Positions 11,968-64,000 of a DNA stretch of 64,000 bases are shown in pieces. A program made the position numbers and the translations under genes. The stretch spans positions 30,876,001 through 30,940,000 of the forward strand of contig OX597831.1 in the NCBI GenBank assembly GCA_951406725.2, in the 5' to 3' direction. The notes beneath the pieces were generated by a model, which was not told where the DNA came from, ran no database searches, and saw only the letters and a list, made by a program, of their open reading frames with translations. Source of the DNA: Octopus vulgaris (lineage: Eukaryota). Numbering within the stretch: position 1 is the first letter of the stretch; the number at the start of each line of letters is the position of its first letter.

Positions 11968-12443
11968 TGTGCGTGCGTGCGTGCGTGCGTGCGTGTGTGA
12001 AAGCGTGGAAGTTTGAACAAGACTACTTTTGTGTCCCGGAATCCCCGGAAGGTGAGGGTTGAGTCCCCTTGCAAATTCATGGATTGTTAGTTGTTTTTAT
12101 TTATTTATTTTCTTTATCTTTTTTTCTTCTTCTTATTTTTCCTTTTAGAGAATAACCGGCAGATAATCACGATCATGCTCATAGCCCTCCGGGCCTCGAA
12201 CCGATCTCATAAAGCTGAAACACACAACCCAAACCTCACGTGGGCCTCACATTGGGCCCATGGTGGCTATACATACACTTGTAATACATAAAAGATATAC
12301 AAATTGAAAGGGTGACAGGATCTGTCTCCGGGTGAAATACACAACTCTTCTTCTCGTGCGTCCTGTATAGGGATACATGCACTCATAGTTATACATAGAC
12401 ATGTAATACATAAGAAATATACGAAAAGAAAGGGCGGACTGAC

Positions 12444-13382
12444 CTGTCTCCATAGTGATAGCTGTATGCTGTCACTAGCGGTAGTTTCCGAACTGAGCAG
12501 ACCTGCCACGATTAGATGACCACTGGGTAATAGAATTCCCAACATTACCGAAACCATCCTCTGCATGGGCATCAGTGTATAGACCATGAACACAACGAAC
12601 GCAACCTCCCATACTCCTTGGATTGGTAGCGACAAATACCTACTATCCGGGTAGTAACTGTTCTGTAAGATTAGACGAGTGTTACCGGGAGTAGGGGTCG
12701 AACCGGCAACGGCGTCGTTGTTGACAACATTGGTGACCACTTCGTCCTCGAGACCGACCCGGTACGTTCCGGCCGCTTTGTCAGATGTAAAACCGGACGG
12801 TAAAGAGGGCTTCAGTATGGAAGGGTTTTCAGTGCCGCTTTGCTCGTTGCTTGTAGGGTTAGCGTTGCGGTTGTTGTATTGATGGTCATGGTTGGTTAGA
12901 TGCTGTTTATAAATTGTGTTACTGTGTCCTCTGTCTTTGTTGTTGAAGTCGGTTTGGCTTTCGAGAGGGGGTCGATCGCCGAATGGAATGGGGAAAGACA
13001 TCGTGGCAAATATGACGAGGAAAAACATAAGGACGTAACAGAGGGGTATGAAATACGTTTCTTCCATATAGCGGGTATTGATGAAGACGAAAACAGCAAT
13101 GAAGAAAAGGCATTGTAATAACAAATAGATGCTCCGAATGGTCGGATAAAGGAGGTAGAAAAAATTGAGGGCTGCCAAGCAGATTGTTAATAATATAAAC
13201 ACGGCTAACATATAACCGATACTGGTTTGCTGTAGTTTGTATATATATCTCTTGTATAACTTTTCCAGTTCAACATTATCAAACTCATAGCGATTTAATA
13301 GTCGTTTTAATCTCTTTTTCCTCCGTGACATGATATATTCCGTTGTGGGGTTTTTCCCTTGAGGTCCACCGTTCCCAGTCAT
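12444..13382 (-). CDS. rut: First coding exon (313 aa) of a transmembrane adenylate cyclase, rutabaga/ADCY1-like; N-terminus plus TM1-TM5
   Basis: Translation has RYEFDNVELEKLYKRYIYKLQQ (cf. rutabaga-type F-x-N-x-ELE-x-LY-x-RY-x-x-KLQ), then hydrophobic helices and GVWEVAFVVFMVYTLMPM, the adenylate cyclase M1 motif. ATG at 13382 is in aaaATG context, with an alternative ATG at 13331. The exon ends TGG AGA CAG|gtcagt, a phase-0 donor at 12443. The ORF-track extension to 12267 is intron read-through. The subtype is assigned from recalled motifs. Confidence 0.88.
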
Positions 13383-14389
13383 TTTATTATGACTGTTGGT
13401 TATAAATTGTAGTTAATATATATATATATAGTTTGTTTGTTTTCTTCTTACTATTAACGCATTTCGAATAAGAATTAAAGTATATATATATATATAATAT
13501 ATATGTATGTAAATATATATATATATATCCACTCAGAAGAAGAGGAAAACAAACCGTAATAATTAATAATAATAGCAATAATAATAATTAATAATAATAA
13601 TAATACTGATAATAATAATAATACTAGTAATAATAATGGTACTAGTAATAATAAACAAATTTCTCAATAAACAGAAATACAAAGAAATAATAAAGATAGA
13701 GAAAGAGAGAGACAAAAGATTTGAAACAAATCAAAAAAGAAAACAAACGGGGAGATGATGATCACTAAAGCTCTCCTCCTTCAACTTCACCTTTCTACTC
13801 TAAGTATCACTCCAGCCGCCACTCCAAGTGCCACTCATAGTTGCACTTGGAGTTACTAGTGGTAAAAGGAAGTCGGAAGAAGATAGATATTATGCCCTAG
13901 CCGCTTTTTGCTTTTTTACACCACCACAGATCACGGGATCAAAATACGCTCTTCCCTCTCTTTGAAGTCCATACGAACCAAGTGAAGAAAGAAAAAAAAA
14001 ATTAGGAAAGAAAGTGAAAGAAATAGAGAATAAGAAAAAAAGGAAAGAAAAGCGTAAGAACACAAAATTCCCAAGATATATACGCTGACCTCCTTCTGTT
14101 TTCTCTCTAGTTACTCTATTTATAGTTTCCCCTTCTTGCCCTGCCACCACTCCCCTGCCTCCTCCATCACTTCTTCTGTCTCTGTCTATCTCAGTATCTC
14201 GCACTCACTCACTCACTTACTTACTCACTCGATCACTCACTCACTCACTCACTCACTCATTCTCTCCCGCACACTCACACACTCACTCACTCACATAGAT
14301 GCACACACACATACACACGCACACACACACAAATTACTTCTCCTCTGACTCAGGCAAAAATATTCCATTCTCTGCACTACATTTACCAA

Positions 14390-47466: not shown

Positions 47467-47658
47467 AATCCAAACAAGAAAGCATAAAAAACACAACAAC
47501 GCGAGGACGTGAAACAAATATAGTATTATTGGACGCTCAGGAAAGAAGGAGGGTTTAACGTTTCGAGCGGAGCTCTTCGTCGGAAACATAGGAGAAGGAA
47601 AGATCCAGAGAAGGGAAGACAGAGGAAAAAAAATCACCAACGGTACAAACGCGGTCAC

Positions 47659-61235: not shown

Positions 61236-62706
61236 AAAGAATGTGTTATAATACTATTGCTCATATACAAAGACAGCCATACCAACAATCCAACATACCT
61301 CCATCATCAGCTGCCCCACGGATGTCATTGTGGTTTCGACACCTAAGTAGTATCATTCAGTCCGGCGGATCAACAGCACTAAAATAAGTGTTGTTTGGGA
61401 ACAATCATACCAAAGAAGCCACCACTTTCAAACACGTTTACCCTATGTCCAACAGTATCGGTAAATAAATTTAATAAGTAAATCTATAACCAACTCCCAA
61501 ATATGTAACTAAACAGCGAGCAAATATGTAAGTCATATAAAAATATTCCCTACAGTCTTCCATAGCATAATATAAAAATGAAAGCTTAAAAACTTATTAA
61601 TTCTATCTAAATATAAGCAGGATTAAAAACTAACTTTAAAGTAAATTACAATTATGAAACACATAAATCTATGTACATCAGCATCGGTATTAATAGTAAA
61701 CCTACAATAACTAAATTATATACTAAATAGCTACTAATCTTTAAGTCCATACAAATAATAATCCCACCAGTCTTCCATAGTTACTACTAAAATAAAAAAA
61801 GTGAAAACTTTATATTCAGTTCTCCCCAAAACAAAATACGATTTAATTTAATTTAACGAATAATATAATAATTATATTATTTCATGAATCAAAAGTTAGT
61901 AATAAAAACACTACATACTCATTAATGTATATTACCCTGACAAGCTTTAATGTAAAAATTATCAATAATTAATAGAAACATTAAATTTTATTAAATACGA
62001 GCTAATAAAAGTATATTCGTAATTATCTATTACTATAAAACCTTGCTACGATTAAAGCTAATTTAAAACTGTTTAAAAGATAATAAAACGGCAATCTTTC
62101 GTCTCTAGTAGACCTTTCCGTCGATTTCCGTAAAAAATTTTTTTTTTTTTACGTATGGGCTTGCGGGAACTTTTGAAGTAATGAGAGCGAAAGAGACTAA
62201 GAGAAAGCGATTGTATGACGAGGGAAATTCTTTTGAAGTTACCGTGCATGGGAAGCATTAATGTACATGTGTGTGTGTGTGTGTGTGTGTGTTTGATGGG
62301 GCGTGGGAGACAGAAAGTATGTTGTGTAAGTGAAGTGCTTCTGTTAGTATGTGTGAAGAGACAGAGTAATGTGTGAAAGAAAGAGATAACTGAAATTTTT
62401 TACTCGGTGTATGTGTATATGTATGTATATTACTTCAAAAGTTCCCGCAAGCCCATATGTAAAAAAAAAATTTTTTTACGGAAATCGACGGAAAGGTCTA
62501 CTAGCGACGAAAGATCGCCAATAAAACTACAACGTATTAACACTTACATGTTTTGTTTTCAGGCCACGCGGTTCCATCACTTCTAGAACTTAAAAGACTA
62601 TCTAACTTATTGATGACGCGGTGTGTAATTACTACTACCTAAATTGTCTCAAACAATATTGGTGACGTAGTAAGCAAATAACTTGGATCGTGAACATTTC
62701 AAATCT

Positions 62707-63104: not shown

Positions 63105-63301
63105 TTATGAAAATAAACAAAAGACGAAGGCAGGTGGGATACAAACAAACAATTGTATTAGTATGGCGCTCAGGAATATAAATAAAACAAGTCTTTTACG
63201 TTTCGAGCCTACGCTCTTCAACAGAAAGATACACAGAAAAGAAACACGGAAAGAAACAAGGAGAGAAAAAAATGCGTGCAGAAGCTAGCGAATCAACATG
63301 G

Positions 63302-63363: not shown

Positions 63364-63714
63364 CGTTGAGAGATTTATTATATATATATCGTCATTAGTT
63401 TATATATCCGAAAAAGAAGCACACTCTCAGAGCAGTAACATATTGTTTTGGTCGATCAGAGAGTGATCATTCAGCTAAGCGCTTTATAGCTACTCTCTGA
63501 CTGACCATAGAACTCACCTTTCTCAATATGTATATATATATATTGTCCAATGAGGATTTGCTAGCCGAAATTTCGAAGTCACTGTCAACTCTATTCTTAT
63601 TAAAGAATAAAAAAAAATTGTATGCTACAAAAAAGTATGGAGCAACCCTACAGATTAATGTAAAATTGAGCGTGTAAAAGCAAATATTAATATATATATA
63701 TATATATATATATA

Positions 63715-63948
63715 CTTTATTTAAAGTAGCAGAAAATTCCACAAAACCTGTTACTCTGAGTTTCCCGTTGCCGTTCATCGGACAGTTTTTGCTAGATTCC
63801 AGCAAAAACTGTCCGATGAACGGCAACGGGAAACTCAGAGTAACAGGTTTTGTGGAATTTTCTGCTGCTTTAAATAAAGCATATTACTCTACCACTGGTA
63901 TTTGAGTACTCTTTTTTCCACCTTGTTTCACATTTATGTGTTTACTCC

Positions 63949-63950
<2 letters not shown>
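63715..63950 (+). mobile_element. Fold-back pLTR-like element (79-bp arms) with hammerhead-like fold on both strands, inside (TA)n
   Basis: Arms at 63715-63793 and 63801-63879 with one mismatch; AATAAA at 63873-63878; (TA)n on both sides. Confidence 0.8.

Positions 63951-64000
<50 letters not shown>

Follow-up and report, generated by a model that had tools for sequence, protein, structure and literature searches.

The palindromic insertion at 63715-63950 of the Octopus vulgaris window (the whole 64,000-nucleotide stretch of DNA that was analysed) is very probably a doubly 5'-truncated, head-to-head insertion of a high-copy Penelope-like element (PLE) with Hydra-clade motifs, bearing one terminal-repeat (pLTR) hammerhead motif per arm, both predicted to be trapped in a hairpin. 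Judged from its sequence, the motif belongs to the pLTR of a protein-coding Hydra-clade PLE, an identity that the earlier note on this DNA had missed. The copy is thus one of thousands of 5'-truncated PLE copies, an ordinary insertion scar with a minor variant. Two points are left over from this description, namely a core with C at position 4 (C4) together with a very short stem II throughout a subfamily, and a near-strict rule of one tail per insertion. The parts of the locus are as follows, with element positions counted from C3 = 0.

63690..63714, unstranded: left (TA)n target microsatellite, read from the sequence; (TA)n is a listed insertion preference of Hydra PLEs
63715..63796, minus strand: inverted, tail-less arm, a pLTR piece that starts about 15 nt upstream of C3 and stops at the first fixed end (+66)
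63743..63790, minus strand: mirror hammerhead motif with an identical core, C3 at 63781, predicted cut after 63752 (cut site inferred from hammerhead numbering)
63794..63800, unstranded: point where the two 5'-truncated arms meet head to head, falling within the stop hot spot of the family (7-17 nt upstream of C3)
63798..63879, plus strand: sense arm, a pLTR piece reaching the +66 end
63804..63851, plus strand: hammerhead motif of type I, Hydra-clade-like and carrying C4; C3 lies at 63813 and cleavage is predicted between 63842 and 63843
63880..63950, plus strand: 71-nt PLE tail up to the second fixed end (+137), which in full-length copies runs on into the 5' leader of the open reading frame (ORF)
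63951..63999, unstranded: right (TA)n target microsatellite

The limits of the 236-bp insertion coincide exactly with the two fixed ends of the element, and the palindrome is centred on 63797 with (TA)n on both sides. The architecture described in the earlier note was recovered, in that the 79-bp arms (63715-63793 and 63801-63879) differ at the single pair 63727/63867, the mirror motif on the minus strand is intact, and AATAAA (63873-63878) is present along with the (TA)n flanks at both ends. A further mismatch lies close to the palindrome centre (63794/63800), and the right arm alone carries an extra 71 bases (63880-63950), absent from the left arm. A target-site duplication is unreadable within the (TA)n target. 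Elsewhere in the window, a MITE-like repeat at 62090-62519 has 59-nt terminal inverted arms that are 95% complementary and lie 312 nt apart.

The hammerhead-type motif itself reads as had been claimed from the letters, with an ungapped stem I paired at 8/9 positions, a 2-bp stem II capped by a GCAA loop, a self-complementary stem III region (ACUC-A-GAGU) and a GUA site at 63840-63842. Compared with the type I core (C3 U4 G5 A6 N7 G8 A9, G12 A13 A14 A15.1, U16.1 H17), it agrees at every position except U4, which is C, and the U4 sister subfamily agrees at all of them. All three helices can be written out, although stem II is limited to 2 bp and positions 10.1-11.1 hold A and a variable base. 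Nor is the hammerhead the fold of lowest predicted energy: it was at -1.5 against -6.5 kcal/mol for the monomer and at -14.6 against -20.8 kcal/mol for a dimer formed through the stem III palindrome. In natural context without the inverted arm it lay 7-10 kcal/mol above the minimum, with 9-10 kcal/mol for un-inverted C4 and U4 copies alike. The isolated 48-nt motif folded no better than its shuffles (z +0.43). Rfam at the gathering score gave no match in the whole 64-kb window, and at E up to 10 on the element it returned weak hairpin-shaped matches below gathering and no hammerhead model; a U4 sister copy likewise gave no Rfam hammerhead match. The weak predicted standalone fold is in keeping with published accounts in which metazoan PLE hammerheads require dimers or protein, and the motif of the parent element is likely a weak, dimeric or protein-assisted type I hammerhead, or one partly decayed in the C4 subfamilies.

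Other hammerhead-like sequences were seen alongside. The stem II hairpin sequence (63820-63828) is identical to what the published table gives as loop 2 of the sea-anemone element Penelope-2_NV, with the helix beneath it missing here. Four additional hammerhead-like cores in other repeat families lie on the minus strand of the window at 63221, 57389, 50272 and 3890; some of them have U at position 3, those at 63221 and 57389 sit in short microsatellite-flanked repeats, and all four are probably the ends of other PLEs. An unrelated core at 47583 (minus strand), in a microsatellite-flanked repeat, also has C4, along with a 4-bp stem II closed by G10.1-C11.1, and would be a better test case for the U4C change if it is conserved in its own family.

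The motif is not a chance occurrence, because a 28-nt core pattern with four free positions had 5,257 matches in the genome (G000), a count of motifs and not of insertions, against none for the reversed control. A DNA similarity search of the genome returned 65 matches, many with an adjoining inverted partner (40 of the 248 candidates were scored). The family is also contained in sequence runs C and D, labelled as other organisms, with both letters at the subfamily marker 63847. Contigs of the family also occur in one run presumed to be RNA, which was given no weight as evidence of expression. Ten stretches were taken, eight of them for inverted core pairs 1.8-4.2 kb apart, and six of the ten held long reading frames with reverse transcriptase (RT) and/or endonuclease motifs. 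Family copies have a single ORF, RT followed by GIY-YIG, which the window copy lacks. Among 30 loci picked by a stretch of the RT, the hammerhead lies upstream of this ORF, with C3 205 nt before the first Met, in seven, and open frames of 726-727 codons occur in four; a pLTR hammerhead is also found downstream, about 1.1 kb past the ORF stop. The nearest Atlas clusters of the ORF (0.95-0.98) carry HTH_animal, RVT_1 and GIY-YIG, and a 507-aa piece of it gave nothing significant in Pfam or PDB sequence searches.

The protein carries RWK and DKT (in the N-terminal part of the RT), YRDD, a CxCX5C (or CxF) linker, CxxC and CxH, and RWK, DKT, the linker, CxxC and CxH belong to the Hydra-clade diagnostics of PMC8557442. 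The linker is intact in L161 and L065 and reads CxF in five other long copies, with no Cys in the core by inspection; in the young U4 copies L163, L165, L166, L169 and L172, Phe replaces the second Cys. Element ends adjoin (TA)n in the window and in the loci inspected, as is the Hydra-clade preference. The family is placed in this clade provisionally, by motifs and not by a tree. The C4 copies share the ORF, with 83-93% amino acid identity in L124, L125, L128, L134 and L135, and ORF remnants were present in 27 of 30 loci picked with the 3' UTR of a C4 copy.

Through comparison of the genomic copies, we identified the U4C change as an inherited subfamily trait and not a stray mutation, and the conservation across copies that the earlier note had asked about was borne out. 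Genome-wide (G000), C4 with G at 11.1 has 1,092 exact matches and U4 with A at 11.1 has 3,582, and 583 of the 5,257 core matches fall outside these two classes. Divergence from the class majority was 1.8% for C4/C11.1/G41 (24 arms), 1.0% for C4/G11.1 (81 arms) and 0.4% for U4/A11.1 (33 arms); in the tail, the part on which no search pattern selected, the corresponding differences were 12/586, 29/2189 and 5/938. As the subfamily samples were gathered in differing ways, we infer the order of ages from these divergences, by which C4 appears to be the older state and U4 the last to arise. The largest subfamily, apparently the youngest, thus has the canonical U4. In every sampled subfamily, the majority state is kept at the remaining core positions and in the palindrome of stem III.

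The special 10.1-11.1 pair that had been suggested for this core did not hold up. No such pair is conserved because 11.1 is A, C, G or T depending on the subfamily, and 1x1 mismatches at the base of stem II, including U-U, are already common in the hammerhead table of PMC8557442. A new base pair was also considered for positions 4 and 11.1, which covary (C with G, U with A), and was discarded, as +1, +16 and +34 are linked subfamily markers and C4 is also found with C and T at 11.1.

The suggestion that the core might be a new natural hammerhead variant stood in part. C4 is absent from all 26 published Hydra hammerhead rows in the supplement table of PMC8557442, and from the alignment rows consulted and, by text search, two supplement files of PMC4209133. 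However, a natural U4C hammerhead has been reported from a viroid, with lower activity in vitro that was yet sufficient for infectivity (PMC3088659, citing Ambros and Flores 1998). The core change is the same in both; in the viroid it is a rare variant within a full hammerhead, whereas in the octopus it is a fixed trait of over 1,000 retroelement motifs in the genome, whose stem II is reduced. The literature novelty of U4C is thus limited, and the small PLE hammerhead variants of Lunse et al. 2017, outside this comparison, may list C4.

With regard to age, the divergence of the arms (1/79) is in line with the spread of about 1% in the C4/G subfamily. By this measure the window copy looks young and the U4 subfamily younger still. 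Of the earlier inference of a recent insertion, the part concerning a young family, about 1% from the class majority, was retained, while the recency of this single insertion was not shown by polymorphism; among the records listed for four runs, none bridged the insertion site.

We compared the layout of 74 two-armed insertions, being sampled loci with duplicates removed. The outer ends of the arms fall at either of two fixed sites, +66 or +137, and abut (TA)n. A tailed end was paired with a tail-less one in 71 of the 74, two tails were present in one, two tail-less ends in none, and two were unclassified; in the subset without hand-picked loci or loci chosen for resemblance to the window, 38 of 39 were one-tailed. 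The 5' limits are variable by comparison, as arms range from about 20 bp to more than 2 kb, reaching into the RT ORF, and the junctions vary from copy to copy and are often centred on a short palindrome. The arm stopped 7-17 nt upstream of C3 in 25 of 52 pattern-picked arms, the picking pattern itself excluding shorter arms, and the window junction falls in the same range. Reading this hot spot as a splice acceptor was rejected, as no common upstream exon was seen. The whole motif is kept on both arms in 33 of the 74 pairs, and in 22 of these the two motifs abut as in the window. An inverted truncated copy and a one-sided tail are known features of PLE layout (PMC8557442; PMC3846280).

The two arms of an insertion mostly resemble each other, with subfamily concordance in 39/40. 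A rare variant at +41 was common to both arms in 13 of 15 pairs covering that position (23 of 30 loci remained after removal of seven duplicates). This variant, G at 63854 in the window, had been considered as a private mutation proving arm-to-arm copying and was set aside, as 46 genomic matches carry it. The insertions L009:1435-1675 and L093:1316-1547 each join arms of two subfamilies. A single event may have drawn on two RNA templates here, or conversion may have followed, and one shared RNA template is therefore not the rule in every case.

These features are best accounted for if the element protein cuts both strands of the (TA)n run. The two ends so made would then prime reverse transcription at different sites of RNA from one source, +137 for one and +66 for the other, and the resulting cDNAs, each halting just upstream of stem I, would be linked by end joining. 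With the stop point just 5' of the ribozyme, retention of the whole motif by both arms would be a by-product. Such two-site priming fits, by analogy, the two RT start sites and the two-strand cutting described for the green anole element (PMC11167929). In full-length copies (L158:661-920) the 3-4 nt after both fixed ends resemble the (TA)n target, and the cut target may anneal at these bases. The palindrome could otherwise have arisen by fold-back copying, in which a single cDNA or antisense RNA primes itself and is copied back with no need of two priming events. Self-priming on an antisense template has been proposed for the inverted junctions of rotifer PLEs (PMC3846280), and the sharing of rare variants between arms (13/15) and the short palindrome often present at the junction centre are what it would produce; by itself, however, it gives no account of why the copied arm ends at the other fixed site next to (TA)n in 71 of 74 insertions, the arms are often very unequal at their 5' ends, and L009 and L093 join two subfamilies. 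We therefore consider fold-back copying unlikely. A non-autonomous hairpin DNA element of the MITE or fold-back type, moving as a 236-bp unit, would also be short, palindromic, high-copy and TA-flanked, but copy-specific junctions, arms of such widely differing length extending into the RT ORF and non-equivalent ends leave it scarcely credible.

That the motif of the C4 subfamilies is a dead relic, the element having moved without cleavage, is a serious possibility that falls somewhat short of an even chance. U4C reduces activity in vitro (PMC3088659), the G10.1-C11.1 pair is missing, stem II has 2 bp, the folding is weak, and in vitro PLE insertion was unimpaired by hammerhead mutants (PMC11167929); against this stand the majority state of the remaining core positions and of the stem III palindrome in all sampled subfamilies, the infectivity still supported by U4C in the viroid and the canonical U4 of the youngest and largest subfamily. 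A broader reading, which we put forward tentatively as it is more likely to fail than to hold, is that a single strict rule, by which the two ends are primed at two different fixed RNA sites, is the mechanism behind PLE inverted repeats, and that the family spread through a succession of subfamilies with a U4C, 2-bp stem II hammerhead still cutting as a dimer or with protein before the youngest, largest subfamily regained U4. The earlier note had further proposed that a read-through transcript could change between the ribozyme fold and a long hairpin, an alternation that might serve regulation. Either fold can indeed be written out, and each strand carries an intact motif. A 381-codon open frame at 12270-13412 (minus strand) matches the adenylyl cyclase N-terminal family PF16214 (E 6.9e-12), and since the insertion lies about 50 kb upstream of this minus-strand exon, read-through is not impossible. 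The switch is nevertheless very unlikely, because transcription of either strand yields the complement ahead of the ribozyme, leaving no kinetic window, and because of the hairpin's predicted advantage: in the two-armed element the hairpin was at -149 against -56 kcal/mol for the hammerhead fold on both strands, every hammerhead pair had a probability of 0.0, and the best fold keeping the core lay 93 kcal/mol above the hairpin. Of the 74 sampled insertions, 22 show this same layout with variable junctions, as expected of scars, and nothing singles out the window copy as selected. A read-through RNA is thus predicted to be a plain long hairpin, with the motifs held in its 80 bp.

The inserted-scar reading places the octopus family beside PLEs already described. 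Hammerheads of the Hydra-clade elements Hydra-2_aMil, Hydra-1/2_aJap and Penelope-13_HM are tabulated by Craig et al. 2021 (PMC8557442). The family and these elements have in common a C-terminal GIY-YIG, RWK, DKT, the CxCX5C linker and (TA)n targets, although many young octopus copies have Phe for the second linker Cys, unlike the Hydra-clade pattern. In that table the Hydra-2_aMil hammerhead shares the 4-bp inner stem I of the octopus motif and has, like it, a stem III of the form ACUC-N-GAGU, and Penelope-13_HM is entered with a truncated copy in inverted orientation and a hammerhead on each strand, as in the window. The octopus motif departs from the tabulated rows in its C4 (0/26 rows) and in its 2-bp stem II, against 3-7 bp, and it differs from the hammerhead listed for Hydra-1_oBim, so this is another family. 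The minimal dimer-type PLE hammerheads of Cervera and de la Pena 2014 (PMC4209133) are likewise borne on pLTRs with a palindromic stem III, and widespread truncated singles and opposite-strand pairs are reported there as in the octopus; their consensus has U4, G10.1-C11.1 and a long stem II, whereas the octopus motif has C4, lacks that pair and has 2 bp. Poseidon of the green anole (Frangieh et al. 2024, PMC11167929) resembles the octopus family in having two RT start sites and an optional tail; it cuts both strands in AT-rich DNA, its hammerhead lies upstream of the RT start sites, and the PLE hammerhead is described as protein-assisted. Poseidon belongs to a different clade, and the octopus tail is 71 nt. 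The accessible text of PMC11167929 does not report the near-invariable use of different sites by the two ends of one insertion.

The family bears modestly on two points named as open in PMC8557442, namely the role of the hammerhead in endonuclease-bearing PLEs and the origin of their inverted structures. Matched C4 and U4 forms of one motif offer a handle for side-by-side comparison, and the one-tail-per-insertion rule gives a sharp prediction for the in vitro PLE reaction. Cleavage by the C4 motif, if it occurs, would slightly extend the known limits of the hammerhead core and would mean that many PLE ribozymes escape searches built on CUGA. If the broader reading set out above is true, this octopus family would be a natural experiment on the hammerheads of PLEs.
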